Virus record (IMG/VR): IMGVR_UViG_3300021963_000027
Coordinates: 32,001 to 96,000 of that record
Source of the DNA: a virus
Reading direction: 5' to 3' (one strand)
DNA length: 64,000 bases
A program made the translations under genes and the position numbers. Shown piece after piece: positions 171-29,640 of this stretch. Position 1 is the stretch's first letter. Every line of letters starts with the position of its first letter. The notes under the pieces were generated by a model. It ran no database searches, had not been told where the DNA came from, and saw only the letters and a list, made by a program, of their open reading frames with translations.

Positions 171-476
171 GTGGGATACCATGAGTGTGGTCATTCTGTC
201 ATTGTCTTTTTCATACCCTCCTCACCATCAATTTTCAAATATATGGAACTGATTCCTATAGAATATAAAATAAAACACGATTTCAACGAATACACTTACT
301 ACATCGTGTCGAGAAATACCAATAAAGGGAACCAAAAATGGTTTATCACTATGTATCGTAAAGAAATTTATTTTAATATTGAAGATATGTCTTGGACGTA
401 TTTTGCTTTGGATTGGTGCGGTTTCAACAAACCTGAAGAAGCTTTGGAAGCTTTTGAAAAATATCTTAAAAACTAG
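171..476 (+). CDS. Hypothetical protein
   Basis: ORF track; ends YLKN* inside the repeat motif; start uncertain. Confidence 0.6.
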   Translation: MGYHECGHSVIVFFIPSSPSIFKYMELIPIEYKIKHDFNEYTYYIVSRNTNKGNQKWFITMYRKEIYFNIEDMSWTYFALDWCGFNKPEEALEAFEKYLKN

Positions 477-490
477 AATACAATCGTGTC

Positions 491-757
491 ATGCAGAAAC
501 GTTATTACATGTATCTCCCAATGAATATCGACAAAGAAAAGAATACTCGCTTTGTCGTGGAAACTGATGGCATCCCTCAAAGTGATTTGTTCACTGGTAG
601 AGTCGTCGCTCGTAATTCCAAAGCTTATTTCCATCTTGGTCGTGTAATGAATGAGTGGGTCAATCCCATGGCAGACTTGCGAAATGGTATGCAACCATCT
701 TTTATTCCTATCAGTCTATCAGAGGTCAAAGAGAAATTTGAACAACACATTTTATAA
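491..757 (+). CDS. Hypothetical protein
   Basis: ATG 6 nt after TACAAT of the motif. Confidence 0.75.
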   Translation: MQKRYYMYLPMNIDKEKNTRFVVETDGIPQSDLFTGRVVARNSKAYFHLGRVMNEWVNPMADLRNGMQPSFIPISLSEVKEKFEQHIL

Positions 758-759
758 TT

Positions 760-1038
760 ATGAAAAAAGAAATCGCAGAACTTATTGTTGAAAATAGCTA
801 CGACATGGACATTCGTGAGGATTACAGTGGTCGAGGAATGTTTGGGAATACCACTACTGGTATCGTGTGTGATAGCGAGAAAGATTTTTATAACGCCATT
901 GGTGAACTTTACATGGAAATGATCAAAGATGCTATGATTGAAGCTGAAAATTATGATATGGAGCCAGCACAAGAACTAACAGAAACAATCGGTCGAATTC
1001 GCGTTGATAACATGGGATATCGTTATATTTTTTACTGA
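760..1038 (+). CDS. Hypothetical protein
   Basis: ORF abutting the upstream gene. Confidence 0.75.
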   Translation: MKKEIAELIVENSYDMDIREDYSGRGMFGNTTTGIVCDSEKDFYNAIGELYMEMIKDAMIEAENYDMEPAQELTETIGRIRVDNMGYRYIFY

Positions 1039-1256
1039 TGATAGAAGAACGATCAATATTCATCGAAGAAGGACAAAGCGTATTCTTCCCCAGAGTTGGT
1101 CTTTGTTTTCATAAATCATTTTCGGATAAATTTAAAGGACTGACATTCCCCCAAGCAAGGCGTAAATTGAAGAAGTCTTTCACACATAGTCAGCAAGATC
1201 ACATCATGCACTATCTGAAACAAAAAGGAATCACAATATCACCATTAAAAAACTAG
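1038..1256 (+). CDS. Hypothetical protein
   Basis: TGATG overlap with the upstream gene; ends PLKN* in the motif. Confidence 0.7.
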   Translation: MIEERSIFIEEGQSVFFPRVGLCFHKSFSDKFKGLTFPQARRKLKKSFTHSQQDHIMHYLKQKGITISPLKN

Positions 1257-1299
1257 AATAAAATCGTAGCACAACAACGAACCAACAGAATAACACATT

Positions 1300-2328
1300 A
1301 TGGCACACGAAATTGAAATCGGAACTGATCGGGTAATCACATTTGGCGAACGCGCATGGCATCGTCTCGATGAGAATCACCAGACTCCTCTTACTAAAGA
1401 GATTATCAATCCTTTGTTCATTCCTTATCTGGAAGGGCAAGCTAACGTCAACATCGATGGGGTAGAAGTACCTCTTGAGGGTTGGAAGACTATTGTTGCT
1501 GATCTTCGTAACAGTGACATTGAAGGCGATTTCCGTCCTGTTCATGTTGCGTCTGATCGCTATGAGATTCTCCAAAATGAAGTCTTGTTCGATGCACTGC
1601 AAGAGGCACTGCGTGGAATCAATTACAATATCGTATCTGCTGGCACACTGGCAGGTCTAAAGAACTTCTTCGTATCGGTGGAATTCAATGGAGAATCGAA
1701 TATCAATCTACCTGATGGTAGTGAGTGCAAAGCGTTCTTCTCCCTCTTTACTTCTCATGATGGCACGAAAAATGCTTCCTACTACGATACGACACATCGC
1801 ACTGTTTGCATGAACACTGTTCGTTCTTCTTATCAAGCTCGCGGTAATCAAGGGTTCAACATCGCTCACACCAAAAACGCAAGTGTGCGTATCATGAACA
1901 TGGCTCAAATCTTCAATGATACTCTCCATGGTCGTCGTGTCTTCGAAGAGAATATGGCTGAATTGTATTCCATTGAATGCGATTTGTCCAAAGCAGAACG
2001 ATTCGTTGCTGGTTTCTTGGCAGACAAGACAAAAGCCGAAGAGAAGCTTTCCACACGCTCTTTCAACCAAATGACAGAGATTGTCGCTCTTGCTTGGAAC
2101 GGTGCTGGTAATCGCGGTGGCAATCTGTTCTACCTTGCCCAAGGTGCTACTGAGTATTGGACTCGCGGCAATGGCACTGGTGGTGCAAACAAAGACCTCG
2201 GACGCAAAGCATTCTCTTCTGAGTTCGGTCTTGGCATGGATAACAAGTGCAATTTCCTCTCTGCTCTTAGCAATCCATCGCAACGTGAGAAATTCATCAA
2301 GCGGGGAGATTTGGTTCTTAGCAACTGA
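1300..2328 (+). CDS. DUF932-family phage/plasmid protein (TIGR03299-like)
   Basis: MAHEIE...AWHRL N-terminus; Y-x-I-LQN, SHDG and RTVCMNT motifs typical of the family. Confidence 0.8.
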   Translation: MAHEIEIGTDRVITFGERAWHRLDENHQTPLTKEIINPLFIPYLEGQANVNIDGVEVPLEGWKTIVADLRNSDIEGDFRPVHVASDRYEILQNEVLFDALQEALRGINYNIVSAGTLAGLKNFFVSVEFNGESNINLPDGSECKAFFSLFTSHDGTKNASYYDTTHRTVCMNTVRSSYQARGNQGFNIAHTKNASVRIMNMAQIFNDTLHGRRVFEENMAELYSIECDLSKAERFVAGFLADKTKAEEKLSTRSFNQMTEIVALAWNGAGNRGGNLFYLAQGATEYWTRGNGTGGANKDLGRKAFSSEFGLGMDNKCNFLSALSNPSQREKFIKRGDLVLSN

Positions 2329-2385
2329 TCCCTACGCCCCCCCCCCCCTCCCTCCCTAATTAAAAAACTAGAATAAAATAATCGC

Positions 2386-2778
2386 ATGAATGAATCACGA
2401 ATGTATTTCTTTGTCATGAGACAATTAAACGGTTTAAATAAAGGAATCCAAGCAGGTCACGCAGCAATCGAATATCAACTGGAACACGGTAATAAAAAAG
2501 TTTATAAGGACTTTGCAAAATATCACAAGACATTCATCATCTTGGATGGTGGTGGGTCAAAAGATATGGAATCGCGCCTGACTGAATTGGAATATTTCAA
2601 AGTTGATCATGCACCATTTTATGAGCCTGATCTGAACAATTCTTTGAGCGCAATCGCTTTTATTGTTCCTGAAAGTATCTATGGTATGGATATTAAAACA
2701 ATCGATGATCCTATCTTTGTTACCAGAAATGAAGAATTCGCACGGTATCTCAAATCTTTCAAATTAGCAAGTAATTAA
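2386..2778 (+). CDS. Peptidyl-tRNA hydrolase PTH2-like protein
   Basis: MYFFV...KGIQAGHAA...KTFIILDGG...FYEPDLNNSLSAIAF matches the PTH2-like pattern seen in T4-like phages. Confidence 0.7.
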   Translation: MNESRMYFFVMRQLNGLNKGIQAGHAAIEYQLEHGNKKVYKDFAKYHKTFIILDGGGSKDMESRLTELEYFKVDHAPFYEPDLNNSLSAIAFIVPESIYGMDIKTIDDPIFVTRNEEFARYLKSFKLASN

Positions 2779-2803
2779 AAAACTAGAATACAATAATCAC
2801 ATC

Positions 2804-3298
2804 ATGAAAATTACAACAAACATTCAGTCATTGACTGCCACAGACACCATTTCTAACTTCTTCAAAGGGAAAGGTCAATTCATGCGAGCAGCATGGAAAA
2901 GTAATCCGAAACCAGCAGCAGCGTTTAAAGGTGTTGTTTTGGAAAAACGCACCACCACTATCGTTCGCTCTGGATTGGAATTCCAAAATCTTTCGAGTGT
3001 TAAAGAAGCTATCGAATCTGGTGAACGTGGAGAAGTTCAAGAGCTTCCTTGGGGTGAATGGGTTTATTATCCTTACCTTATCAAGCACAACGAATCGTAT
3101 TATCTGCGAATGTATCCCACTGATTCTATTCCTATCGTGCGATATTTTGTCGATGATGTTGAAGTCACAAAAGATGTTTTCGCGACATATCTCACACCAT
3201 CGGAAGCTAAGAAATTGCTGAGTGAAGATAAAGAAAAACCCGAATGCTTCACGATCAAAATGGAAAACGTTCTCTCAACTGAGGAATTCATTGGCTAA
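2804..3298 (+). CDS. Hypothetical protein
   Basis: 164 aa ORF after the motif. Confidence 0.8.
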   Translation: MKITTNIQSLTATDTISNFFKGKGQFMRAAWKSNPKPAAAFKGVVLEKRTTTIVRSGLEFQNLSSVKEAIESGERGEVQELPWGEWVYYPYLIKHNESYYLRMYPTDSIPIVRYFVDDVEVTKDVFATYLTPSEAKKLLSEDKEKPECFTIKMENVLSTEEFIG

Positions 3299-3335
3299 TC
3301 AATCCCAAACAAACAACACAAATACACAAATACAC

Positions 3336-3572
3336 ATGAATAACAAACTAAATTGCTGTGCATACAACATCGGTCGTCCACAAAAAACCCATACAGGTTG
3401 GGTAAACAGAGGGGCAACTGAAGTATTGAATGCTAATCGTAAAGGTATCGCCAAACTTCGTCAACGTGGATTCACTTGGGCGCAGATCAACCAATGCCTT
3501 GAGCGTGTCGGTGTTAATGTTGGTTACAATAACCTTTATCAGTGGTCTTTGAATCATTACAATAAACGCTAA
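3336..3572 (+). CDS. Hypothetical protein, possible HTH DNA-binding protein
   Basis: Internal ATG at 3336 of the 3222 ORF; IAKLRQRGFTWAQINQCL resembles an HTH. Confidence 0.55.
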   Translation: MNNKLNCCAYNIGRPQKTHTGWVNRGATEVLNANRKGIAKLRQRGFTWAQINQCLERVGVNVGYNNLYQWSLNHYNKR

Positions 3573-3666
3573 TCTGTAGGACTTGGCTGATTCCCTCTCT
3601 CCCATAGCCAAGGGGACTCATATCAGAGAGGGAATTACTTTTAAAAAACTAGAATAGACTCTTCAC

Positions 3667-3846
3667 ATGCACGTTGCCGAAGCTATCCAACACCTCAAAA
3701 AAGTTCTTCCTTACATTCACACCATCGAGCCGATTGGTAAGAATCTATTCACTGTCAAGTATGCAAGCTACAATGGAATCAGATCGTGGAGATGTCCAAC
3801 TTGCTTTGCGGAACATAGAAAGCGCATAGCCGATCTTAAAAACTAG
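3667..3846 (+). CDS. Small hypothetical protein (59 aa)
   Basis: TAGACT-N6-ATG; ends ADLKN* in the next motif. Confidence 0.65.
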   Translation: MHVAEAIQHLKKVLPYIHTIEPIGKNLFTVKYASYNGIRSWRCPTCFAEHRKRIADLKN

Positions 3847-3860
3847 AATACACTTGAGAC

Positions 3861-4013
3861 ATGATAAAAAGTATATTAGAAATTGAAAAATTGATTGATG
3901 ATGCCAAAGATTGCGGTAGAAATTTTAACGGTATGACATATCTCGAAGGTGTTATAGTTGCTTTGGAATGGGTTCTCGGTAATCTTGAAGATGACGAATC
4001 ACCAATCGAATAA
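3861..4013 (+). CDS. Small hypothetical protein (50 aa)
   Basis: TACACT-tgagac-ATG. Confidence 0.65.
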   Translation: MIKSILEIEKLIDDAKDCGRNFNGMTYLEGVIVALEWVLGNLEDDESPIE

Positions 4014-4019
4014 AATATT

Positions 4020-4259
4020 ATGAAAGACGATCACCCATTTGATGATTTTAAATTTACTATTGATTTCACACCAGAGAATGAAAAGTATCTGAAAAGTAAA
4101 GGTTACGAAAAACGCAATGGTTCTTGTGCATATACGAGAACAGTTCTTACGGTAGTGCCTTTTAAAAAGTGGTATTGGGAAGATGCTTATAAATCTAAAA
4201 TCCATTTAAATATCGAAACAGAAACGATTGTGAAAGCACGTTTGGTAATTAAAAACTAG
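4020..4259 (+). CDS. Hypothetical protein
   Basis: ORF ends VIKN* in the motif. Confidence 0.7.
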   Translation: MKDDHPFDDFKFTIDFTPENEKYLKSKGYEKRNGSCAYTRTVLTVVPFKKWYWEDAYKSKIHLNIETETIVKARLVIKN

Positions 4260-4273
4260 AATACACCCAAATT

Positions 4274-4558
4274 ATGGAAAATATCAAATTTATTAATAAC
4301 GATGAGTGGTCTGGTTGTTTTGTGAATAATAATCACCCACCTTACAAATCAAATCCATTGCATCAATATACCTATACTGGAAGTGTGGAGGGTAATAATA
4401 TTGTATTTTATCAATTATACGAACACACATTTCTCTACGAAGAAATAATGCTTTATAAAATTCTTCGATGGGAACCAATTTCGGTGAAAAGACATTGCGT
4501 GTCAATGCTTCGAAATGTCATCGATGGTTTGAATGCTTGTACAGAATTTAAAAACTAG
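4274..4558 (+). CDS. Hypothetical protein
   Basis: Motif upstream; ends EFKN*. Confidence 0.75.
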   Translation: MENIKFINNDEWSGCFVNNNHPPYKSNPLHQYTYTGSVEGNNIVFYQLYEHTFLYEEIMLYKILRWEPISVKRHCVSMLRNVIDGLNACTEFKN

Positions 4559-4572
4559 AATACACTTGAGAC

Positions 4573-5331
4573 ATGACAAATAACCTTGCTACCATCGCCA
4601 AAGCATTCCGTCACAACACTGGTAAGTCTTTTCTTGACTCTGGTGATCACTATGGTCGTCACTATGAAAAACCTCCCATTACTGATGAGACTCCATTGGT
4701 GTCTATTGATACATGGAGAACGGAAATCACTGCCACAATCGACACTGCTCGCTTTCTGGCTGAAACCTGTAAAGTCGATACTGAACTTCAAAATCAATTT
4801 GATAAGTGGGTTGAACTGGAAGAGAATTCTGAATTGAATTGGTTCGAAGCGGGAGAGACATTTGCTACAGAAGTGTTAGGTCTAACACAATTGGCGAGAG
4901 ACAATACTTACAATGGTGAGAATGATTTATCTCAAACGTATGTTTGGGAAGTCTATGCCGATGAGGATGATGGTGATTGGATTTACAATGACGATGCTCT
5001 GATGGTCGTCTATGCTCACACTGGTTGCGATGTACGCGGTGGTTATGCTTATCCCTTGTTCCTACGATGCCAAGGGGATTATTCGATTCCCATGGATTTG
5101 GTAGCTGAATTTTTCATCACCGATGCTCGTTTGAATGGTGAAGACTTGGAAGACGAAGCATGTCGATCATTGGATGAACAATGGCAATGTGGCTATACTT
5201 CCAATCCTGCTTACCATATGTCCAAGGACATTGAGCGCGTATTTGAATTCACCAAGACAGTGAACACGGTGGTCGTGAAGCTGACAAGCGGTGAGATTGT
5301 CAGAATCATGGCAGGAGCAAGAACATATTAA
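4573..5331 (+). CDS. Hypothetical phage protein (252 aa)
   Basis: TACACT-tgagac-ATG; long ORF. Confidence 0.85.
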   Translation: MTNNLATIAKAFRHNTGKSFLDSGDHYGRHYEKPPITDETPLVSIDTWRTEITATIDTARFLAETCKVDTELQNQFDKWVELEENSELNWFEAGETFATEVLGLTQLARDNTYNGENDLSQTYVWEVYADEDDGDWIYNDDALMVVYAHTGCDVRGGYAYPLFLRCQGDYSIPMDLVAEFFITDARLNGEDLEDEACRSLDEQWQCGYTSNPAYHMSKDIERVFEFTKTVNTVVVKLTSGEIVRIMAGARTY

Positions 5332-5353
5332 AAAACTAGATTAAAATTTGGAC

Positions 5354-5551
5354 ATGATGAAGATCGTCAAACTCGACATGGAGTATGTCAATAAAGGAAC
5401 TCCAATGCATGAACTACCCGTTATCTTTAAAGGTAATTCAAAACAATGTAAGGGTATGTTGTTACGCTATCAATTTGTTAAAGAGAGTAATCTCTATGGA
5501 GGTTACTGGAACGATGAAGAAGGAAACAGTTATTTTATTTTACCCTCATGA
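5354..5551 (+). CDS. Hypothetical protein
   Basis: TAAAAT-ttggac-ATG5354 preferred over the TTG at 5348. Confidence 0.7.
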   Translation: MMKIVKLDMEYVNKGTPMHELPVIFKGNSKQCKGMLLRYQFVKESNLYGGYWNDEEGNSYFILPS

Positions 5552-5802
5552 ATGATCTTACTTTACGTATGAATAATCTTGCACGATATGTGAAATGCCC
5601 GATCTACATTGATTACTATACTCATGATAGTTGTGATTGTTACAAGATCGATGTACCATATACTACATATGCCAAAGAAACACGGGTTTTGTGTCGAGTC
5701 GATGAAGGTATCGAACTGGCAAGACAACGAGCAAAACAAATTTTGTTTAACAGAATTGAAGAATCTCTCACCTTAAATCCAATTGAAAGTTATGAACGAT
5801 GA
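5548..5802 (+). CDS. Hypothetical protein
   Basis: ATGA overlap with the upstream gene. Confidence 0.7.
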   Translation: MNDLTLRMNNLARYVKCPIYIDYYTHDSCDCYKIDVPYTTYAKETRVLCRVDEGIELARQRAKQILFNRIEESLTLNPIESYER

Positions 5803-6007
5803 TGATTTAGATATGTTTCGCGCCATTGCGAACGAATGTGATTATGATGAATGTGTTTTGATCATGGAGGATTGTTTGGAATCTGATTCGGAAATCATGC
5901 GAACATCTGTGTATGAAATCTATAAAAGTAGGCTTAGATATTTGAAGGATTTGGAGGATGAACTTGAATACTACGAATATCTTAGCGAATCAGGAAATTG
6001 GGATTAA
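5792..6007 (+). CDS. Acidic hypothetical protein
   Basis: ATG 5792 in the frame of the 5783 ORF; stop at the motif. Confidence 0.65.
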   Translation: MNDDDLDMFRAIANECDYDECVLIMEDCLESDSEIMRTSVYEIYKSRLRYLKDLEDELEYYEYLSESGNWD

Positions 6008-6028
6008 AAACTAAAACATAATTAAGCC

Positions 6029-6172
6029 ATGAAATACATTCTAACAAAACGCTGCCCTGATGGTCAAATCGTAATTGTGCATCTCGCATCTGAACAGGAA
6101 CTCAAATTTCATCTTACTGGTATGTGGCATCACACCACTGGTTACGAAATCATTTCCATCGTCAAAGCATAA
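6029..6172 (+). CDS. Small hypothetical protein
   Basis: Variant motif CATAAT-taagcc-ATG. Confidence 0.55.
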   Translation: MKYILTKRCPDGQIVIVHLASEQELKFHLTGMWHHTTGYEIISIVKA

Positions 6173-6176
6173 TCCT

Positions 6177-6389
6177 ATGAAAAGACTCACTAAAGAAGAA
6201 ATAGAACGATTTGCCAATGCATCCACAAACAAAGATGCTGTGTGGAATTTCCTTGGCACTGCTCATCACTGTGGTAATTATGTCAATGCGATTGCCAATC
6301 TGTTAGACGATGCGGCACTGTATGGTTGGAACAATTTGACTGTGATGGCAATCTATGAGGGATTGAAATACGCAAATTTAAAAAACTAG
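6177..6389 (+). CDS. Hypothetical protein
   Basis: Internal ATG of the 6075 ORF; ends NLKN*. Confidence 0.65.
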   Translation: MKRLTKEEIERFANASTNKDAVWNFLGTAHHCGNYVNAIANLLDDAALYGWNNLTVMAIYEGLKYANLKN

Positions 6390-6403
6390 AATATACTTGG
6401 GAC

Positions 6404-6604
6404 ATGAACATTACAGCAGAAGCAGGAGAATCGGTGTTTAATTTAGCAAAGAGAGCCATACAAGAAGCAGCATATAAAAACATTGCAATTGGGATGACTC
6501 ATAATGGAGATACTGTATCGGTTTATCCAGAAAGTCATATTCATGATATTCTTGAAAAAATGCATTATCTTCGGGAGTATAAAAGATTAAAAACTAGAGC
6601 ATAA
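6404..6604 (+). CDS. Hypothetical protein
   Basis: TATACT-tgggac-ATG. Confidence 0.75.
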   Translation: MNITAEAGESVFNLAKRAIQEAAYKNIAIGMTHNGDTVSVYPESHIHDILEKMHYLREYKRLKTRA

Positions 6605-6611
6605 TCAGGAT

Positions 6612-6758
6612 ATGATAGTTGAAAACAATCCAATCGATGGTAGTATTCAAATTACTACGATTAAATTCAATCGTCTGATTACCCGAACATACTTCGACTT
6701 CACGCATGACGAAGCAGTTGCGGCATTCGATGAATATCTCAAATCTCTAAAAAAATGA
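6612..6758 (+). CDS. Small hypothetical protein
   Basis: CATAAT-caggat-ATG; ATGA overlap with the next gene. Confidence 0.6.
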   Translation: MIVENNPIDGSIQITTIKFNRLITRTYFDFTHDEAVAAFDEYLKSLKK

Positions 6759-6970
6759 AAATTAAATTTATACCAGCAAAGGAATATCCGAAAGAATCGG
6801 GGCAATATTTATGGAAATCTTGCTTTGGGGATGTTATGCTTGTGAATGTTCGCAAGTTGTCTTCTGAATTTGGCTATGGGGACTGGTTTGGAGTATCTGA
6901 ATTCGGGGGTAAGAATGTTGAGAGATACAATGCGAATCAATTCAGTGAGAAAGTAGAATTTGAACAATGA
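6755..6970 (+). CDS. Hypothetical protein
   Basis: ORF track; overlaps both neighbours by ATGA. Confidence 0.7.
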   Translation: MKIKFIPAKEYPKESGQYLWKSCFGDVMLVNVRKLSSEFGYGDWFGVSEFGGKNVERYNANQFSEKVEFEQ

Positions 6971-7164
6971 AAGACAAATTTACAACCCAAGAAGTGTGGC
7001 GATACGTGGAAGGATTCATGTCTACCCAATCGAATAGTCAAGAGCTATCCATGAATGAAATCCTTGCCATGTTGAAAAATGCGTTGGCATGTATCGAAGA
7101 TGGTGATGATGGTCTTGTTGCTTATCTTGATCGCATGGAATACTACAAAAATTTAAAAAACTAG
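6967..7164 (+). CDS. Hypothetical protein
   Basis: Ends NLKN* in the motif. Confidence 0.7.
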   Translation: MKDKFTTQEVWRYVEGFMSTQSNSQELSMNEILAMLKNALACIEDGDDGLVAYLDRMEYYKNLKN

Positions 7165-7178
7165 ACTACACTTGGGAC

Positions 7179-7727
7179 ATGACAACGACACGAAAAGTAA
7201 TCGAATCAATCGATCTTGAAAAACATGGGAAAGAAGTCCATGGAAATGAGGATCTTTGTAATGTGTTTGGTATCTACGAATACTTACATTTTGATGATAG
7301 AATCAAAATGGTGTTTGTTCGCCCTCATCTTTGCACAGACTCTTGGGTTGGTGTTAGAGCATACTTTCTTGATGGAGAATTCGTAGCAATCTCCACACAA
7401 GTTGGTCGAAAATGGGATGAAGAATTTAAATTCGTTTCCAACGAAGCGGCAATGAAAGTTAAAGATTATGTATTGTCTTTCGTAGAAGAACCTCGATACG
7501 ATATTAGCATTGCTGATGATCTGGATGTCGAAATTGATGATTTTTATACCGTTGAGTATGCTGAACAAATTCTACACAAGCATGGTGTATATCAAGGAGA
7601 ACGTGTTGCAATCAAACGCAAGCATAGAAATTGGAATGATTTGCACACTGCAACAATTATGCTGAATGTGAAAGAATGTGATGTGGATTGTCGCGAAATT
7701 CAATTGGCTTACGTCGATCTTTCTTAA
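7179..7727 (+). CDS. Hypothetical phage protein (182 aa)
   Basis: TACACT-tgggac-ATG. Confidence 0.8.
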   Translation: MTTTRKVIESIDLEKHGKEVHGNEDLCNVFGIYEYLHFDDRIKMVFVRPHLCTDSWVGVRAYFLDGEFVAISTQVGRKWDEEFKFVSNEAAMKVKDYVLSFVEEPRYDISIADDLDVEIDDFYTVEYAEQILHKHGVYQGERVAIKRKHRNWNDLHTATIMLNVKECDVDCREIQLAYVDLS

Positions 7728-7749
7728 AAAACTAGAATATACTTGGGAC

Positions 7750-8091
7750 ATGACAGGACGGGACATGACAGGAGAACAAAATGAATTCATTAACAATCAT
7801 TTCTTCAAAAATTATGATAATCATGGTTGGGATAATATCGCACGGAAGCTTATCAAAGATGGGAAATGTATTGTAGCGGGAAATAGTAAACTTTGGCATG
7901 GTGGTATTGGAAACTTTATCAAATGCGCCCCTGCTGAAAATGCCATTGGTTGTTCTCTATTGACTTTCGATAAAGAATCTTTTTTACAATCAGCATGGTT
8001 CAAAGAACAAGTAGGATACTATCTCAAAGAATTGACACATCAAATTGATTCTTTACAAGATGAGCGATACGCAATCACGAATCTACTTTAA
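7750..8091 (+). CDS. Hypothetical protein
   Basis: TATACT-tgggac-ATG7750 (true start inside the 7678 ORF). Confidence 0.75.
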   Translation: MTGRDMTGEQNEFINNHFFKNYDNHGWDNIARKLIKDGKCIVAGNSKLWHGGIGNFIKCAPAENAIGCSLLTFDKESFLQSAWFKEQVGYYLKELTHQIDSLQDERYAITNLL

Positions 8092-8113
8092 AAAACTAGA
8101 ATATACTTGGGAC

Positions 8114-8284
8114 ATGACGAGAGACGAATTACTACCAATCATTGAAAAGATGGAACAATACGGTGGAAGCTTTGCGAAATCGCTGGCAGTTGCCATGCGT
8201 TATGCTGATTCAAACAATCTTCAACGTATTGTGAATGCCTTCCCCGAAATGATTAAAAGCTACTCAGAATTTTTAAAAAACTAA
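8114..8284 (+). CDS. Small hypothetical protein
   Basis: TATACT-tgggac-ATG8114; ends FLKN*. Confidence 0.75.
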   Translation: MTRDELLPIIEKMEQYGGSFAKSLAVAMRYADSNNLQRIVNAFPEMIKSYSEFLKN

Positions 8285-8298
8285 ATTAGAATAATAAC

Positions 8299-8595
8299 AT
8301 GAACATCGACAACATCGAAAAAGCATTATTTATCAAACAAAGAATTGACAATAACAACATCGCAATTAAAAAAATTGATTCTCTACTCGCGAAATATCCT
8401 AATGGAAACTCCGATGGTAAGTCATTTAATGGAGATGGTAAAATTTACGCTCTTTATTTGGGAGAGTATAAAGATGGTAGTGGAATTTCGATTGAACTTA
8501 CTGGTTCATTGATTCAAACCCAATTATTGGAAAATGCGATGCGATTATTGGAAGCTCAAATCGAAAATGATATCAAAATTATCGAATCTCTATAA
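8299..8595 (+). CDS. Hypothetical protein
   Basis: TAGAAT-aataac-ATG. Confidence 0.75.
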   Translation: MNIDNIEKALFIKQRIDNNNIAIKKIDSLLAKYPNGNSDGKSFNGDGKIYALYLGEYKDGSGISIELTGSLIQTQLLENAMRLLEAQIENDIKIIESL

Positions 8596-8618
8596 AAACT
8601 AGAATACACTAAAAGCAC

Positions 8619-8753
8619 ATGAAATACATATATCGAATCTGGAACTTCTTCTCTCCCCCTGCCACTCCCACCTATGGTTGGAAAATCCTTGAACAACGGT
8701 CTTGGCTTGAAAAACAAGTGCAAGAAGAATTACTGAAACGCCGCGAATACTAA
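8619..8753 (+). CDS. Small hypothetical protein
   Basis: Motif upstream; 44 aa. Confidence 0.5.
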   Translation: MKYIYRIWNFFSPPATPTYGWKILEQRSWLEKQVQEELLKRREY

Positions 8754-8754
8754 T

Positions 8755-9072
8755 ATGACAATCGCTCAACAATTAAAGATTAAAGAATTCCCATTCAGCA
8801 TCAAAGATTCCAAAGGTAATGTGATTTACTTCGAGAACTCCGATGGATATTGGATTAAACGTGAATACGATTCCAATGGTAATCGGATTTACTACGAGGA
8901 CTCTGATGGAGGTTGGATTAAGCGTGAATACGATTCTGATGGTAAAGAGATTTACTACGAATCTTCTTTCGGAACAGTCATTGATAATCGTCCCAAGACA
9001 GAAATCCAGAAAGCAATTGAACTTCTCACGAAAGAAGGGTTGATCGTGGATGGTAAGATTTTAAAAAACTAG
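8755..9072 (+). CDS. 21-aa-repeat family protein, copy A (105 aa)
   Basis: MTIAQQLKIKEFPF N-terminus, YYEDSDGxWIKREYDSxG repeats, DNRPKT...GKILKN* tail. Confidence 0.85.
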   Translation: MTIAQQLKIKEFPFSIKDSKGNVIYFENSDGYWIKREYDSNGNRIYYEDSDGGWIKREYDSDGKEIYYESSFGTVIDNRPKTEIQKAIELLTKEGLIVDGKILKN

Positions 9073-9086
9073 AGTATAATCAACAC

Positions 9087-9278: not shown

Positions 9279-9300
9279 AAAACTAGAGTATAATAACGAC

Positions 9301-9528: not shown

Positions 9529-9644
9529 GATTAAAGTCTATCTCGATACAAACCAAGCTAAGGGATTCCCAATCTCTGAAAAGAATCGTAAGCGGTCTTT
9601 TTTCACTAGACTTTTACGAAAGATTTGGTAAGTATCATAATAAT

Positions 9645-20140: not shown

Positions 20141-20174
20141 ACACTCTTTAAAAACTAACCTAAAATAATACCAC

Positions 20175-20402: not shown

Positions 20403-20423
20403 AAACTAGACTAAACTGATACC

Positions 20424-20756: not shown

Positions 20757-20778
20757 AAAACTAGACTAACATTGCACC

Positions 20779-20982
20779 ATGATCATTCGATACACTAGCA
20801 AGATGGGATATAAAGCAATGCCAGATGAGAAGTTCAAAGGAACAGTTCTTGAGGCGAAAGCTCATGCGATGGGGAAAATGAATGATGATACTTACACCAT
20901 CTCCATTGAAGACAAGAAAAACAAAATTGTTTTTAACTATGGCTACACGGGAGTATCTCTCGGACAAAATAAAGTGAAATAA
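20779..20982 (+). CDS. Hypothetical protein
   Basis: TAACAT-tgcacc-ATG. Confidence 0.7.
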   Translation: MIIRYTSKMGYKAMPDEKFKGTVLEAKAHAMGKMNDDTYTISIEDKKNKIVFNYGYTGVSLGQNKVK

Positions 20983-21003
20983 AAACTAGACTAACATTGC
21001 ACC

Positions 21004-21114
21004 ATGACATACCTATTCATTCCGACACTCATCATATCATTCATAGCTATCGGCTCCCGCAGCTTCATATTCTATGCTACTGCGATAGTCATGTGGTGTC
21101 TGACACTCAGCTAA
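21004..21114 (+). CDS. Very small membrane peptide (36 aa)
   Basis: TAACAT-tgcacc-ATG; hydrophobic; fills a whole cassette. Confidence 0.55.
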   Translation: MTYLFIPTLIISFIAIGSRSFIFYATAIVMWCLTLS

Positions 21115-21146
21115 GAATTAAAAAACTAGACTAAACTGATTCCGTT

Positions 21147-21272
21147 ATGAAATACAAACACTGCACAATCCTCAAAGCAATCGCTGGTTACAATGTATAT
21201 GCCAGCAATGACATCTTGAATGTTCCTACCATCGCAGCAGCAAAGGCACTGATCGACGGATTAAAAAACTAG
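21147..21272 (+). CDS. Small hypothetical protein
   Basis: Motif upstream; ends GLKN*. Confidence 0.6.
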   Translation: MKYKHCTILKAIAGYNVYASNDILNVPTIAAAKALIDGLKN

Positions 21273-21309
21273 ACTAAACTGATAACGTAACCAATAACCA
21301 CTGAATACC

Positions 21310-21567
21310 ATGACCAATAAAGAAATCATTACAAAATTCGTAAAAGGCGCAACCACTGGCAAGATCACCCGCAACAATCCATATGCAGGGGGCAAGCTCA
21401 CTCCGCTCTTCATCGAGGGTGACACTATCTACTCTTATGGACACCACTTCCCCCTCGCTCGTCGCAATGGCGATGGCACTTTCTGGGTGAATCCCGACAA
21501 GTATAGCGTCACCACCAGCAAGCATCAGTCGCTTGTGCGCTACGCAATCAGCAAATTTTCGGTGTAA
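21310..21567 (+). CDS. Hypothetical phage protein
   Basis: IYSYGHHFPLA...YSVTTSKHQ; motif upstream with a longer leader. Confidence 0.8.
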   Translation: MTNKEIITKFVKGATTGKITRNNPYAGGKLTPLFIEGDTIYSYGHHFPLARRNGDGTFWVNPDKYSVTTSKHQSLVRYAISKFSV

Positions 21568-21769
21568 CATGGCAAAGTCCCCTCTCTTCCGTGGTAGGAA
21601 GAGAGGGGCAACCCTTTTTAAAAAACTAGACTAAACTGTTACCATGCCTGACATCACCGACCTATCCGACAGCGACCTGCAAGACCTGATTGACTACTTG
21701 CAAGGTGTGACAAAATGACGCACCTGAAAAACCAATCCAATTAAAAAACTAGCATAGAATAGCTATACC

Positions 21770-21931
21770 ATGCAAGACTTTAAAGAATATATTCAATCCG
21801 CTCTCGACTCCAACGTTCTCTGTGAGGTTATGGGATGGGACACAAAACACGGTCCAACAGTGGAACAAATGCAAGCACTGGACACCCTTTTGGGTGAGAG
21901 TCTCGAATCTTTAAAAACTAGACTAAACTGA
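21770..21931 (+). CDS. Small hypothetical protein
   Basis: Motif upstream. Confidence 0.5.
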   Translation: MQDFKEYIQSALDSNVLCEVMGWDTKHGPTVEQMQALDTLLGESLESLKTRLN

Positions 21932-21938
21932 TTACGTC

Positions 21939-22079
21939 ATGAAAACTTACTACGCGCATATCCGTCTGACTAACCGCGAGCGCAGTCTGCTCGCGCAAGC
22001 AATCCGCATCAATCGCCACCAGCGCAAAACCTTCACCCGTAAAGATGCCCACAATCTGGCATGGGTGCTGTTCGCATAA
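21939..22079 (+). CDS. Small basic hypothetical protein
   Basis: TAAACT-gattacgtc-ATG; stop at the motif. Confidence 0.6.
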   Translation: MKTYYAHIRLTNRERSLLAQAIRINRHQRKTFTRKDAHNLAWVLFA

Positions 22080-22108
22080 TTAAAAAACTAGAGTAAACTG
22101 ATTACGTC

Positions 22109-22396
22109 ATGAAAACACAAAAAGAGATTAAATTAAAAGACGGTTCAACGCTTGCCAAAGGTCTGCCAGTATCATTCGTTGCTGGCAGTGATAGCCGATG
22201 CCTTGTGCATTCTCCCGCGCATTCTGAGCCGTTGCAAGTGCGCATCACAAGCGCGTTCAAAGCACCTTCCATGGCTTCTCTGGAACGCTGGGGAATGGAT
22301 GGCGTGTGCAAGACTCCCACGGGCAAGCGTGTCGAGCCTGATGGATACGGTTCTGATGGTAGCCCGTCATGGCTGCTGGTTTTCGGACTCATCTGA
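22109..22396 (+). CDS. Hypothetical phage protein
   Basis: VEPDGYGSDGSPSWLLVFGLI; motif upstream. Confidence 0.8.
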   Translation: MKTQKEIKLKDGSTLAKGLPVSFVAGSDSRCLVHSPAHSEPLQVRITSAFKAPSMASLERWGMDGVCKTPTGKRVEPDGYGSDGSPSWLLVFGLI

Positions 22397-22456
22397 ATCC
22401 AAGGGGGGAGCGCATCCTACACGCTCATTAAAAAACTAGACTAAACTGATTGCACC

Positions 22457-22612
22457 ATGAAAGTCTATATCTCTTACAACTGTGGTTTCGCTTGCATCCG
22501 TGAAATGGGAACTGACAAAGTTCTCCACGAACTCAAAGGCAAGCGTTCTATTGAACAGCACTTTGCTACTGGTAAAACCTATGCCAAGAAAATGGGATGG
22601 GAACTCGCATAA
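22457..22612 (+). CDS. Small hypothetical protein
   Basis: Motif upstream and downstream. Confidence 0.6.
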   Translation: MKVYISYNCGFACIREMGTDKVLHELKGKRSIEQHFATGKTYAKKMGWELA

Positions 22613-22640
22613 TTAAAAACTAGCCTAAACTGATTGCACC

Positions 22641-22805
22641 ATGAAATACAACGTAACTAATATTCAATGGGATACCGATGGTATCCCTAACAAATCCCTT
22701 CCGACAAGCATCACCCTTGAAGTGGAAGATGAAGATGATGTGATAGATGATCTTTCCGATGAATATGGCTTTTGCATATTCTCTGCTGACATTGAAGAAG
22801 CGTAA
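22641..22805 (+). CDS. Small acidic hypothetical protein
   Basis: Motif upstream and downstream. Confidence 0.65.
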   Translation: MKYNVTNIQWDTDGIPNKSLPTSITLEVEDEDDVIDDLSDEYGFCIFSADIEEA

Positions 22806-22951
22806 TTAAAAACTAGCCTAAACTGATTGCACCATGAAACTCGACACTAACAAATGCAAGGGACTTCCAATGGGAGTCCGCAATCGCAAGCGCACGATCC
22901 TATCCAAGATCATCCGCTGGTTCAATTAAAAAACTAGACTAAACTACTACC

Positions 22952-23254
22952 ATGTCCAACACCATCAACACCCTGTCAGGCAAGTGCGCGAAATCATTCG
23001 CGTGGAAACCATTCGCGTCCGCGACTATCGCAAAAGGTAAAATTCCCTTTGCTTTCTGGGAGTCAAACCGATCAAAACGTGAGTGCAATAGCATCACGGT
23101 GATTGAGTTCGACTCGGAGCATGAAATTTCATCATGGATCTCGGATCTCTGCTCTGGTGCAATCATTTGCGATTCCAACTATTTCTGGTGCGTCTCAGTG
23201 AATGGTAAATTCGAATCATCAAAATCTCGCTACGGTGGATACCTCAGTGCCTAA
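22952..23254 (+). CDS. Hypothetical protein
   Basis: TAAACT-actacc-ATG. Confidence 0.75.
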   Translation: MSNTINTLSGKCAKSFAWKPFASATIAKGKIPFAFWESNRSKRECNSITVIEFDSEHEISSWISDLCSGAIICDSNYFWCVSVNGKFESSKSRYGGYLSA

Positions 23255-23297
23255 CGGTGCTGGGGCTTTTAAAAAACTAGACTAAACTGTTACTACC

Positions 23298-23504
23298 ATG
23301 AGACTTCAAACCATCATCAATCAATTCGCCATCACCACGCGCAAAACACGCGAGGGCAATACCATCGTGGAAGCACCCATCGGCACTGAGTATCGTCGCT
23401 TTCTTTTCAACCTTCAGGACTACGTTGTCACGGGTTGCGCTGGTGATATGGTATGGCTTAGTCCACGCCAAGGTTTCTATGGCGGTGTCCCATACGGCAA
23501 TTAA
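23298..23504 (+). CDS. Hypothetical protein
   Basis: Motif upstream. Confidence 0.7.
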   Translation: MRLQTIINQFAITTRKTREGNTIVEAPIGTEYRRFLFNLQDYVVTGCAGDMVWLSPRQGFYGGVPYGN

Positions 23505-23529
23505 AAAACTAGACTAAACTGTTACTACC

Positions 23530-23766
23530 ATGAGAAAAGGATACGGACCAACCAACGTTAGCTACCACCTCCCCCTTCAGCGTTTCACCGAGATGGTGAA
23601 GCAGGGGATCAACATCGCTCAGGGAGTCGATGACAATAACAAAGTGCTTTCCAGCACACTGCCGCAAAACCTATCGGAAAATTCAATCAAAAGAATTTTC
23701 GACGATGCGGATTGCGTCTGCTACCACGGAGGTGTTCAGATGATCATCCCCCGTCATCTTGCTTAA
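23530..23766 (+). CDS. Hypothetical protein
   Basis: Motif upstream. Confidence 0.7.
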   Translation: MRKGYGPTNVSYHLPLQRFTEMVKQGINIAQGVDDNNKVLSSTLPQNLSENSIKRIFDDADCVCYHGGVQMIIPRHLA

Positions 23767-23826
23767 AGACTAGGGGGGAGCGCATCCTACACGCTCATTA
23801 AAAAACTAGAGTAAACTGTTACTACC

Positions 23827-24039
23827 ATGATTACTGTATTGACCATCGAAGACCTTGAAACAATCATCACCAAAACGTCCCCGCGCCTTAGTGCGCTCGG
23901 AATCGTGTACGCAATCATCAATGATGATACTGATGAAGAAGTCACAAGCCGATACCCCACAATCGAGGAAGCGTGGGATGAATTTAAAAAGACTTGGGTT
24001 GTCGGGACGTTCACCGTTCTCACAATCTTTAGATCCTGA
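23827..24039 (+). CDS. Hypothetical protein
   Basis: Motif upstream. Confidence 0.7.
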   Translation: MITVLTIEDLETIITKTSPRLSALGIVYAIINDDTDEEVTSRYPTIEEAWDEFKKTWVVGTFTVLTIFRS

Positions 24040-24068
24040 TTAAAAAACTAGAGTAAACTGTTACTACC

Positions 24069-24305
24069 ATGAATACTACCACTGCTACCACCGCCACCGC
24101 CAAGAACTTCATCGTTGCCTTCCACGACTGGCAAGGCAATCGCCATACAGTTCAAGTCAAAGCTTCCGATAAAACGTCCGCATACGATGCGGCGTGGCAA
24201 TGGATTGAAGAGAATCGCGGCGACCAACTGGAAATTGAATTTGCGGGTGTTAAAGAGATTGTCTATCTCAAAGACATCATCGCAGAAGCACTGGCTGCAA
24301 ATTAA
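24069..24305 (+). CDS. Hypothetical protein
   Basis: Motif upstream and downstream. Confidence 0.75.
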   Translation: MNTTTATTATAKNFIVAFHDWQGNRHTVQVKASDKTSAYDAAWQWIEENRGDQLEIEFAGVKEIVYLKDIIAEALAAN

Positions 24306-24327
24306 AAAACTAGAGTAAAATAGCTCT

Positions 24328-24420
24328 GTCAACCCCTTCCAACTATCGCGAAGGGTCAACCTGAACCATCAACTACCCCGTCTCTCCCGACCACAGGGAG
24401 GGGCGGGGCAACCAATCTGC
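24328..24420 (+). ncRNA. Candidate small non-coding RNA cassette with two hairpins
   Basis: No ATG after TAAAAT(24316-24321)+N6; hairpins CCCTTC/GAAGGG and CCCCGTCTCTCCC/GGGAGGGGCGGGG; ends at the next motif. Confidence 0.45.
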
Positions 24421-24451
24421 TTTTAAAAAACTAGAGTAGACTGCTACTACC

Positions 24452-24670
24452 ATGAATTACATCACTCCAGAATACGACTTCACAGGACGCTGCACTCCAT
24501 CGGAGGAAGCACAACGCAAGGAAGCGCAAGCGTTCGCCGCCTATCGCGAAAAGGAAGAAGCTAAAAAATTCAAGGTGCGCGATGCCTTCGGGTTCTCCCG
24601 CTACGCCACCTTGGAAGAAGCGCAAGCGTTCGCCGCCACCCTCAAGAATGCAGAGATCATCATCCTATAA
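24452..24670 (+). CDS. Hypothetical protein with internal repeat (KEAQAFAA/EEAQAFAA)
   Basis: Motif upstream; GGAAG(A)AGCGCAAGCGTTCGCCGCC-like segment occurs twice. Confidence 0.7.
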   Translation: MNYITPEYDFTGRCTPSEEAQRKEAQAFAAYREKEEAKKFKVRDAFGFSRYATLEEAQAFAATLKNAEIIIL

Positions 24671-24699
24671 TTAAAAAACTAGAGTAAACTGATTACGCC

Positions 24700-24909
24700 A
24701 TGAATGAAATTACTGCTGACGAGGCACTTGCCCAAATTCGCTCCATGTCCGATAGAGAGTTAGTTGCTTTCTGGAATGTCTTGCAATTCTCTTCCCGTAT
24801 GGTAGGGAGCGGTCGCGACACTTTCAGAGAACCACTGGTTTCTCTTGTCATGAGTGAGCGCAAAATCCCTCATGAGATTGGGAAGCGAACTCTAACATCT
24901 AACATCTAA
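24700..24909 (+). CDS. Hypothetical protein
   Basis: Motif upstream; the C-terminus runs into the CTAACAT repeats. Confidence 0.65.
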   Translation: MNEITADEALAQIRSMSDRELVAFWNVLQFSSRMVGSGRDTFREPLVSLVMSERKIPHEIGKRTLTSNI

Positions 24910-26094: not shown

Positions 26095-26159
26095 CATCTA
26101 ACATCTAACATCTAACATCTAACGCCCACGGTCTAACAGATCGTGGGCGTTTTTTTTTT
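26091..26159 (+). terminator. (CTAACAT)x4.7 plus hairpin copy 2 followed by a long T-run: probable intrinsic terminator ending the array
   Basis: GCCCACG...CGTGGGC 26124-26148, then G and a long T-run. Confidence 0.75.
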
Positions 26160-26168
26160 GCGTACTGG

Positions 26169-28390: not shown

Positions 28391-28950
28391 TACTTGATCC
28401 AGTTGGAGTTATCTTCCCCTGTTTGGAAATTCTCTTTGGTTTCCGCACTTGTCACGATCACGACTTGGATTTCCTGTTTACCAAACATCTTGAGAATGAT
28501 GCCTGATGGGAATTGAGTGATCATATCGTCTCCTTGTCTTTTGATTTCCAAAAGACGGGTTTGAGAGAATTGCCAATCCTTACGACCAGCCACAATGATA
28601 TTCTGTAGATTAGTCAAAGTCTTGACTTCCGTAATCGTCGGAACCGCTTCTTGAACCATACCCACAGTCACCAATTGACCTTCTCCTGCTGTGTTACCCC
28701 CTCTTGCCTGAGCATAACCAGTAATAATATTCGTCAGAGCTTCCACTTCCTTATCGGATACAGATGCTGCTTCTCGAATCGCCTTTCGTGTATTATCCAA
28801 CACGTTCTTATTATCTTCCTGTGTAGCTTTCGCCAAATTCTCCAATTTCGTGTAGCCATTGAAGCTACCGATAGCGGAGAACAAGAAGATAAGACCAAGG
28901 AAGACAATACTTCCACCTGCAACCAATGATGTAATTAATGTTTTATTCAT
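28390..28950 (-). CDS. Membrane-anchored coiled-coil protein, LemA-like
   Basis: N-terminal TM, SFNGYTKLEN...NVLDN, EAVP, LTNLQNIIVAGRKDW. Confidence 0.6.
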   Translation of the reverse strand: MNKTLITSLVAGGSIVFLGLIFLFSAIGSFNGYTKLENLAKATQEDNKNVLDNTRKAIREAASVSDKEVEALTNIITGYAQARGGNTAGEGQLVTVGMVQEAVPTITEVKTLTNLQNIIVAGRKDWQFSQTRLLEIKRQGDDMITQFPSGIILKMFGKQEIQVVIVTSAETKENFQTGEDNSNWIK

Positions 28951-28983
28951 TTCGCAAGTATCTTACCCTATTTTTTTATTTTG

Positions 28984-29373
28984 TCAATAGGGTTGCCATT
29001 CCCAATCACCGTTTTTCATTTCCCAACAATTACTCAAAAATGTTTCTCGGTATGCCGAGTGATTACCCTTTTCAATAATAACATCATCTGTATTAATAGC
29101 GTATTTTGTCCAATCTCCATCAATATTTTTAATATTTACAATATCCCATAAACGATTTTCTATTTCCACTGTCTCCATCTGTCCTTTATTCCTACGCATT
29201 TGGGGTACGATAATTTTGAGTAATTCCGTATCCTCCGACTTCAAAAAATGTCGTTCCCAATTCTCAAAAAGAGTCGCAAGATACAATCTTTCAAATTCGC
29301 TCAATTCGGGAGTGACATCATCTCTGTAATCCAACACCTTTTTCCATTTTTTCAATAATTCGTCGCTCGACAT
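28984..29373 (-). CDS. Hypothetical protein whose N-terminus resembles the gp23 N-terminal prodomain
   Basis: KKWKKVLDY...LATLFENWE versus this window's gp23 AKWRKVLDY...TAMLLENQE. Confidence 0.7.
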   Translation of the reverse strand: MSSDELLKKWKKVLDYRDDVTPELSEFERLYLATLFENWERHFLKSEDTELLKIIVPQMRRNKGQMETVEIENRLWDIVNIKNIDGDWTKYAINTDDVIIEKGNHSAYRETFLSNCWEMKNGDWEWQPY

Positions 29374-29411
29374 AGAAAAATATTACTCCATTTTTTATTT
29401 TTGTCAACCCC

Positions 29412-29439
29412 TTGACTTATTTAAAAACTAGAATACAAT
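29412..29439 (+). promoter_or_regulatory. Sigma70-type promoter containing the array motif in its spacer
   Basis: TTGACT(29412-17)-16 nt (TATTTAAAAACTAGAA)-TACAAT(29434-39)-N6-ATG29446. Confidence 0.7.
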
Positions 29440-29445
29440 CAGAAC

Positions 29446-29640
29446 ATGAAAGACAGATATACATTATACACAGAACCTAATGGAGATCGATGGATTTCCG
29501 CTCCCATAAATGGGGGAGACATTGGTGATCTTTCTGATATCGTGGAAGAACTCAACATGCTTTACAATAAAAACAAAGCATATGCAAAAATAATTGAATC
29601 ATACGAGAAAAGACTTGACAAATCGGAATCTCGTGATTAA
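29446..29640 (+). CDS. Hypothetical protein
   Basis: Isolated motif copy upstream. Confidence 0.7.
   Translation: MKDRYTLYTEPNGDRWISAPINGGDIGDLSDIVEELNMLYNKNKAYAKIIESYEKRLDKSESRD

Follow-up and report, generated by a model that had tools for sequence, protein, structure and literature searches.

Can a large phage related to T4 begin the messages of many of its genes on the start codon itself? Phage gene control is usually taught from T4, whose mRNAs carry leaders with Shine-Dalgarno (SD) sites. The question is raised by a stretch of viral DNA of 64,000 nt, referred to here as the window, which comprises bases 32001-96000 of one 184,181-bp IMG/VR record (IMGVR_UViG_3300021963_000027; genome 89% complete). 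A previous sequence-only reading had noticed gene cassettes whose ATG follows closely on a TAnnnT hexamer, and had proposed that these early cassettes are transcribed as leaderless mRNAs. In the present analysis the hexamer proved to be part of a 20-nt repeated unit. We consider this unit likely to be a pre-late phage promoter, made of an upstream box and a sigma70-type -10 element, read by host RNA polymerase and fused to the start codon. The cassette messages would very probably start at, or within three bases of, that codon.

The phage is an uncultured lake virus and a distant relative of T4. It encodes a homologue of the late sigma factor gp55, its gp23 is only about 33% identical to cyanophage gp23, and megablast against cultured phages gave no nucleotide match to the genome. 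Counts given for the interval cover window 466-29448, and counts given for the genome cover all 184 kb. Coordinates are those of the window unless marked as genome.

A 20-nt unit repeated ahead of small genes

The unit was searched for in three ways, by a strict regular expression, a relaxed pattern and a weight matrix. In full it reads TTAAAAAACTAGnnTAnnnT; its copies have the form (T)TAAAAAA-CTAG-NN-TAnA(A/C)T, or more broadly (T)TAAAAAA-CTAG-NN-TAnnnT. The hexamer of the sequence-only reading is the 3' part of this element, so that it was correctly recognized but understated. All interval copies lie on the + strand, 77 by the relaxed pattern and 66 by the strict expression. Across the genome the weight matrix returned 98 units, 97 of them on the + strand and nearly all within genome 2.8-61.4 kb, compared with 0-2 in shuffled sequence. 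The arrangement TAnnnT-N6-ATG occurs 49 times in the interval, against 12.7 ± 3.7 (maximum 27) in 200 shuffles, and the 12-mer pattern gave 87 matches against 24 ± 4.8 in shuffles.

To leave the hexamer unconstrained, we used the anchor AAAAACTAG alone, which occurs 92 times on the + strand and twice on the - strand. The hexamer that follows it reads T86 A91 n A82 (A/C)91 T90 (n = 92). The A at -11 and the T at -7 are the two flipped-out bases of the sigma70 -10 element. With A2 (91/92) and T6 (90/92) near-invariant, the hexamer therefore carries the sigma70 -10 signature. The box, TTAAAAAA-CTAG, occupies -26 to -15, directly against the -10 element. Upstream of -26 the aligned units show no conservation, and hence no general -35 element.

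The unit is tightly packed between genes. As a rule the gene ahead of it terminates within it, using the TAG of CTAG as stop codon in 25 cases and the TAA of TTAAAA in about 35. The segment between hexamer and ATG is far more varied, with about 25 different discriminators among the 6-nt sites of the window, all of the same length and all with a terminal pyrimidine. The genes in this layout, with the ATG at 6 nt or sometimes at 8 or 9 nt, number about 70 and are small. Their early timing is suggested by the small open reading frames (ORFs) of no recognised kind, by the single-strand block and by the exclusion of the late motif TAAATA, which in the array region is found only on the opposite strand. 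We found no terminators between the cassettes, and terminator-like hairpins stand at shuffle level (14 vs 10.8; 11 vs 9.5). The array and representative members are as follows.

465..24708, + strand: about 75 boxed promoter-gene cassettes, each with a 6-nt discriminator whose last base is a pyrimidine, followed by a purine as the predicted +1; median ORF 70 aa, median promoter spacing 270 bp
465..493, + strand: example of the 6-nt class, with box 465-476, TACAAT 479-484, cgtgtc 485-490 and ATG 491; the upstream gene ends in the TAG of CTAG (474-476)
2775..2806, + strand: example of the 9-nt class, CTAGAATACAAT, then aatcaC|Atc and ATG 2804; transcription is predicted to start on the A three nt upstream of this ATG
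1245..1302, + strand: leadered exception, with the same promoter followed by a 29-nt CA-rich, G-poor, SD-less leader and a DUF932 gene (ATG 1300); orthologues keep a CA-rich leader, 33-38 nt long when counted from the hexamer
20398..24708, + strand: GC-richer sub-block of subtype CTAG(A/C)(C/G)TAAACT, mostly of the 9-nt class, with predicted leaders ACC, GUC and GCC
26121..26161, + strand: the only strong intrinsic terminator of the + block, a 14-bp stem (26121-26151) followed by T8

Spacing to the start codon and predicted transcription start

Distances were measured from the hexamer to the ATG opening the next ORF of at least 24 aa. Among the 77 interval units the ATG lies at 6 nt in 47, at 8 nt in 5, at 9 nt in 17 and at 11 nt in 1; in three of the remaining units a leader of 29-51 nt follows the hexamer, and the last four lack an ORF and precede non-coding RNA. 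Genome-wide, the 6-nt distance is found in 59 of the 98 units. The spacing of 6 nt, sometimes 8-9, that had been described from the sequence is borne out by these counts, and the quoted examples (TACAAT-cgtgtc-ATG491, TATACT-tgggac-ATG6404, TATAAT-caacac-ATG9087 and TAAACT-gatacc-ATG20424) are exact. One exception stands at genome 14932, where the ATG directly after the hexamer is clearly not the real start.

Positions 6/7 after the hexamer are pyrimidine-purine in 76 of the 77 interval units and in 90 of the 98 genome units. This step is also retained in 31 of the 39 genome sites whose ATG is not at 6 nt. Bacterial RNA polymerase favours a start 7 bp after the -10 element, with shares of 8, 55, 29 and 7% for positions 6-9; at +1 it favours a purine in the non-template strand, preceded by a pyrimidine at -1 (PMC5730371). 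Taken together with the pyrimidine-purine at 6/7, this rule predicts that +1 falls on the A of AUG where the spacing is 6 nt, and on a purine 2, 3 or 5 nt before AUG where it is 8, 9 or 11 nt, respectively. By this rule the start coincides with the first base of the ATG in about 60% of units, and in about 30% it precedes the ATG by 2, 3 or 5 nt. Promoter geometry thus supports the earlier placement of +1 at or next to the A of AUG, on the A itself in the 6-nt class and 2-3 nt upstream in the 8- and 9-nt classes.

The predicted mRNAs are A-rich and nearly unstructured over their first 35 nt, with a mean of -1.1 kcal/mol compared with -4.0 kcal/mol for internal windows of the same genes (p = 3e-12).

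Absence of Shine-Dalgarno sites

The 6-9 nt classes leave no room for an SD site before the start codon. That the cassettes lack such sites had already been noted, and the same holds genome-wide: an SD core (GGAG, GAGG or AGGA at -17 to -4) precedes 3% of 305 ORFs, at or below chance, and G is depleted upstream of starts (5-17% vs 18% in the genome). With the same script, an SD core was found in 46% of ORFs in the Pelagibacter phage HTVC008M, 18% in the Rhodothermus phage RM378 and 28% in the Synechococcus phage S-SM1. Conversely, TAnnnT stands at 6 nt before 19% of ORFs here and before 1-2% in those three phages.

An abutting promoter is lacking in 177 genes, and half of these either overlap the ORF ahead of them or start no more than 5 nt from its end. 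In a genome without SD sites, genes lacking their own promoter would rely on stop-start coupling and on A-rich, G-poor upstream sequence. The few leadered early genes have CA-rich, G-poor leaders of ACAA-type repeats (window 1265-1299, genome 26904-26926 and genome 30701-30739), which are kept by orthologues. Annotated starts of the Verrucomicrobia phage P8625 are likewise without SD sites and with CA-rich leaders.

Two rationales for leaderless genes had been offered, a device for continuing translation while host leader-dependent initiation is impaired, and a host rich in such genes. An SD-scarce host or a general SD-free strategy is favoured over an early-takeover device, as SD sites are lacking genome-wide, late genes and internal cistrons included. 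A strategy based on a RegB-like SD-cleaving nuclease was rejected because GGAG is not avoided in the genome (observed/expected ratio (O/E) 1.26-1.36). No phage gene for IF3 or bS21 was found in the genome.

Evidence for a role in transcription

The unit also stands before genes that are not translated. The 5' end of a tRNA-like gene was placed at 20067 by ARAGORN and at 20068 by Rfam (36.7 bits), that is, at position 7 after a TAATAT ending at 20060; the claim that this gene begins 6 nt after its hexamer therefore holds. Units likewise head tRNA-Met (10748), the leader of a tRNA cluster (29428) and several stretches without an ORF. Its position before tRNA and tRNA-like genes indicates that the unit acts in transcription and not in translation. 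The promoters concerned, together with two that lack the box, are listed below.

10710..10822, + strand: TTGACT-16 bp-TACACT, with the box in the spacer, before tRNA-Met 10748-10822; predicted +1 at 10744, giving a 4-5 nt leader
20041..20142, + strand: boxed promoter (TAATAT ends at 20060) and tRNA-like gene, whose 5' end at 20067/20068 is the predicted +1
29412..29448, + strand: TTGACT-16 bp-TACAAT-cagaac-ATG29446, a boxed promoter with a consensus -35 element, heading a leader ORF and tRNA cluster
28950..29407, - strand: two box-less sigma70-type promoters, TTGACA-16-TAATAT-6-ATG (29373) and TTGACA-16-TAAGAT-9-ATG (28950)

In several units a -35-like element is also present, with TTGACT or TTGGCA 16-17 bp upstream of the hexamer at genome 27806, 42710 (tRNA-Met), 61412 (tRNA cluster) and 144890; at the first three, TTGAC(A/T) has a spacer of exactly 16 bp. 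Box-less TTGACA-16-TAnnnT promoters abut ATGs at 6 nt as well, at genome 112207, 124076 and 133498 and, on the - strand, at genome 71620 and 61407; the genes that they head include one for a DNA methyltransferase and one for the N-terminal piece of the DNA polymerase. The arrangement TTGAC(A/T)-16-TAnnnT-6-ATG was seen 8 times, against about 0.1 expected by chance as estimated from base composition. No phage RNA polymerase was detected in the genome, which implies that host polymerase must read the units.

The late genes point to the same base. TAAATA stands 5 nt before about 38-46 ATGs in the genome, and by T4 late-promoter geometry these TAAATA-N5-ATG units would also put +1 on the A of ATG. 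Early and late units thus represent two different promoter geometries that converge on one position.

We also considered whether the unit might act in the RNA of long polycistronic transcripts, as an RNase processing site or as an SD-independent, A-rich signal for ribosome loading or re-initiation. An SD-free genome does need some other initiation signal, the cassettes are not separated by terminators, and the upstream stop codon, 17-25 nt before the next ATG, would suit re-initiation. However, the fixed T1, A2 and T6 with a free position 3 correspond to sigma region 2 reading DNA and to no known RNA signal, and the pyrimidine-purine step stays at 6/7 nt from the hexamer when the ATG moves. 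Several units, moreover, carry a consensus -35 element at 16 bp, the unit heads tRNA and other untranslated genes, and the 177 genes without it are evidently translated. We therefore regard action at the RNA level as unlikely.

Conservation among relatives

The 19-mer of box plus hexamer identified 46 IMG/VR loci. Contigs at 73-96% nucleotide identity contain many copies of the unit with the same spacing, and the layout is kept also in four contigs (L010, L042, L043 and L044) with only 30-52% protein identity. In 103 orthologue pairs the N-termini align gap-free from M1, which supports the start assignments. The spacing is 6/6 in 71 orthologue pairs; in the others it switches between 6 and 9, 8 and 6, 9 and 6 or 23 and 7 nt, and the pyrimidine-purine is always kept, as in cacgaC|ATG versus cgtagC|AcaATG. 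Among loci selected only for their coding sequence, with the opening 22 nt of a paralogous family, the unit stands at 6 nt in 9 of 35 distinct upstream sequences, and a plain TAnnnT stands at 6 nt in 4 others.

A sister lineage, L081, has at least 11 units of the form TGATACACA-CTAGAA-TATACT, with the ATG at 6-11 nt and the pyrimidine-purine in 10 of 11. Since L081 has TGATACACA where this phage has TTAAAAAA, CTAG and the -10 element are common to both and the upstream 8 nt are lineage-specific. Given this swap, the reader of the box is probably a lineage-specific, phage-encoded factor.

Comparison with relatives also bears on a second alternative, in which the units are real promoters but are kept chiefly as recombination points, with the abutment on ATG as a by-product of copying a compact 26-nt module. 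Of the homology breakpoints, 30% fall no farther than 15 nt from a promoter centre, compared with 5% at random, although promoters coincide with gene boundaries and the enrichment may only mirror these. Paralogous cassette subfamilies do share near-identical promoter-plus-discriminator modules, and T4-type phages offer a precedent in the promoter-early stem-loop (PeSL) cassettes (PMC2839356, PMC4122927). Against copying as the cause of the abutment, the roughly 25 discriminators share their length and terminal pyrimidine, orthologue spacing changes only among 6, 8 and 9 nt, and box-less sigma70-type and late promoters in non-repeated regions abut ATGs too. We give this alternative little weight as the chief reason for the layout; recombination at the units is compatible with, and not exclusive of, their being promoters fused to start codons.

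It is highly improbable that transcription starts at the units while translation truly starts elsewhere, giving leadered mRNAs or different proteins: start codons are inferred and the ATG at genome 14932 is indeed not the start, but the 103 gap-free orthologue N-termini, the upstream genes ending inside the unit, and an ATG that is the first in-frame start in nearly all cassettes all speak for the assumed starts.

Proposed mechanism and points against it

In the mechanism that we propose for the promoter units, host RNA polymerase with a sigma70-family factor would read the 20-nt unit, with the box standing in for a -35 element. Each promoter would yield an mRNA with a 5' end of pppAUG or a 2-3 nt leader. 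Because inter-cassette terminators are absent and a single strong one closes the block, transcription of the block would give a nested, 3'-coterminal set of transcripts with every small gene 5'-terminal on one species. Translation would then begin by recognition of the 5'-AUG, in a leaderless, 70S-type initiation.

A search of the genome for a reader of the box found no AsiA, MotA or sigma region 4. One weak region-4-like match was rejected as a candidate, as it sits in a homing-endonuclease-like protein.

Several points weigh against this interpretation. The box matches no described sigma or activator site, so that the assignment of promoter function rests on the -10-like part and on the geometry. 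The 8-, 9- and 11-nt classes would give short leaders and not strictly leaderless mRNAs. Without terminators, most RNA over a gene may be read-through from upstream, in which case protein might be made mainly by a route other than leaderless initiation. Paralogous copies are frequent among the cassettes, and their sites are not independent events, though about 25 discriminators differ. Finally, when metagenomes were scanned with the opening 22 nt of an early gene family present in four copies, 39 loci were obtained, none of them starting at the ATG, and a search of sequencing runs with 10 kb of the array matched no run of the RNA kind.

Comparison with known systems

In function, the nearest kin of the units are the leaderless genes of Deinococcus-Thermus and those of the Thermus phage phiYS40. 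Leaderless genes with a -10 element adjacent to the ORF occur in Deinococcus-Thermus and Actinobacteria, and in Deinococcus it was experimentally validated that TANNNT 6-7 bp before ORFs drives leaderless mRNAs (PMC12340547). For phiYS40, middle and late mRNAs are described as leaderless (Sevostyanova et al. 2007, as summarised in PMC3594737), and in that large phage this covers whole temporal classes. The phiYS40 programme is also characterised by a shift of IF2/IF3 levels on infection, in favour of leaderless translation. The units share with these systems a TANNNT 6-7 bp before the start, no need for a -35 element, no SD site and a transcript predicted to begin at or next to the start codon. 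They differ in that the -10 element is joined to an invariant box of 12 nt on its upstream side, and in that this combination recurs about 100 times. In Deinococcus and phiYS40, moreover, leadered genes use GGAG, whereas here the leadered genes also lack SD sites, in a phage that is T4-like.

In organisation, the nearest kin are the PeSLs, regulatory cassettes in hyperplastic regions of T4-type phages (PMC2839356, PMC4122927). As with PeSLs, a near-identical early-type promoter precedes many small variable ORFs (77 units in 29 kb). In PeSL cassettes, indels and replacements between related phages are bounded by the repeats; here homology breaks more often at the units, which may reflect the gene boundaries with which they coincide. 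Unlike PeSLs, the units have no stem-loop or terminator at the junctions, mostly no -35 element, and no leader or SD site, and the promoter overlaps the stop codon of the previous gene and abuts the next ATG.

The promoters of T4 itself provide two further comparisons. T4 middle promoters carry a MotA box (TGCTTtA) centred near -30, 11-13 bp from the -10 element, depend on MotA and AsiA, and give leaders with SD sites. The units resemble them in combining an ordinary -10 element with a phage-specific box that replaces the -35 element, and in having a related lineage with another box. Here, however, the box TTAAAAAACTAG lies at -26 to -15, against the -10 element, and is unrelated in sequence; no match to PF09158 or PF09010, the MotA/AsiA families, was found at E<=1 in this 89%-complete genome. 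T4 late promoters have the sequence TATAAATA and involve gp55, gp33 and gp45. The TAAATA-N5-ATG units of this genome and its gp55 homologue are of this kind, whereas the early units are another promoter and another temporal class, with a sigma70-type -10 element.

In HTVC008M, too, TAAATA stands exactly 5 nt before the ATG of 11 genes, which are late and apparently leaderless, despite the high share of ORFs with an SD core in that phage. Other large phages with mapped transcripts differ: no leaderless transcript was found in phiKZ (PMC8244752), and leaders of 26-491 nt were found in AR9 (PMC5312081). Our literature search found no description of leaderless early transcription in a T4-like phage.

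If our interpretation is correct, promoters abut the start codon of about 40% of the genes in this T4 relative, no gene has an SD site, and a large virulent phage can live on leaderless initiation and stop-start coupling. With about 100 natural variants of a minimal promoter/5'-AUG module, the array would also be a resource for studying start-site choice and leaderless translation, and it points to a new promoter-box reader. As a practical rule, the starts of tiny ORFs in such phage genomes can be sought at the ATG 6-9 nt after the unit.

Host and possible extent of an SD-free programme

The host probably belongs to a lineage with few SD sites, to judge from the start regions of the phage. Such SD-scarce lineages include Bacteroidota, Mollicutes, some Verrucomicrobiota and Prochlorococcus (PMC10783764). 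One early gene family matches the Verrucomicrobia phage P8625. The 19-mer of box plus hexamer occurs once each in 23 genomes, 18 of them Bacteroidota, in heterogeneous contexts, which suggests k-mer bias rather than a shared element. Bacteroidota promoters are of the TTTG/TAnnTTTG type, and the mRNAs of F. johnsoniae are mostly leadered (PMC6847099). A Bacteroidota host would fit the SD-free, A-rich starts but not the promoters, which here look like the canonical TTGACA/TAnAAT. A SAR11-type host is unlikely, as HTVC008M uses SD sites. A GC-rich early protein of 374 aa had no relative among the genome contigs, and psbA was looked for in the genome and not found.

More tentatively, a whole freshwater T4-like clade may run an SD-free programme. 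It would rest on about 100 pre-late promoters, each with a box private to the lineage and read by a phage factor next to a host sigma70 -10 element, together with a few promoters of the host's -35/-10 type and about 45 of the late class, with mRNAs starting on AUG, 5'-AUG (70S-type) initiation as the principal route and an SD-scarce host among the Verrucomicrobiota or Bacteroidota. We put this forward as a possibility about which we remain rather doubtful. If true, a phage of an SD-scarce host would constitute a natural example of leaderless expression on a large scale.

Additional features of the window and genome

Several smaller features accompany the array. At 29380-29439 two divergent promoters stand back to back, with TTGACA (- strand) and TTGACT (+ strand) 4 bp apart, both with a 16-bp spacer and an ATG 6 nt after the -10 element. 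A candidate small RNA lies at 24329-24420, downstream of a boxed promoter with its hexamer ending at 24321: the roughly 100 nt before the next promoter are GC-rich and contain no ORF. The word gtcaacccctt from this stretch recurs at 29405. The region 17105-17170 has a variant hexamer, CATACT, and then a tRNA T-arm-like sequence, ggttcaagtccc, with no ARAGORN or Rfam call. A weak Rfam tRNA match of 92 nt (31.3 bits vs a gathering score of 29) at 9645-9736 partly overlaps a minus-strand late ORF and may be either a tRNA with an insertion or a false positive.

A paralogous early family with the N-terminus MTIA(K/Q)QLK has at least 5 copies (window 10837-11700 and 14765-15170, and genome 29563-30175). 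The family is widespread among contigs from freshwater metagenomes, and the Verrucomicrobia phage P8625 encodes a homologue.

Elsewhere, the genome strongly avoids four short palindromes, presumably host restriction sites: CCGG occurs 0 times in 184 kb, and the O/E ratios are 0.16 for GGCC, 0.14 for GTAC and 0.66 for GATC. At genome 117224-120253, an SbcC-like (gp46-type) gene appears as two adjoining ORFs and is followed by a homing-endonuclease-like ORF with a helix-turn-helix.

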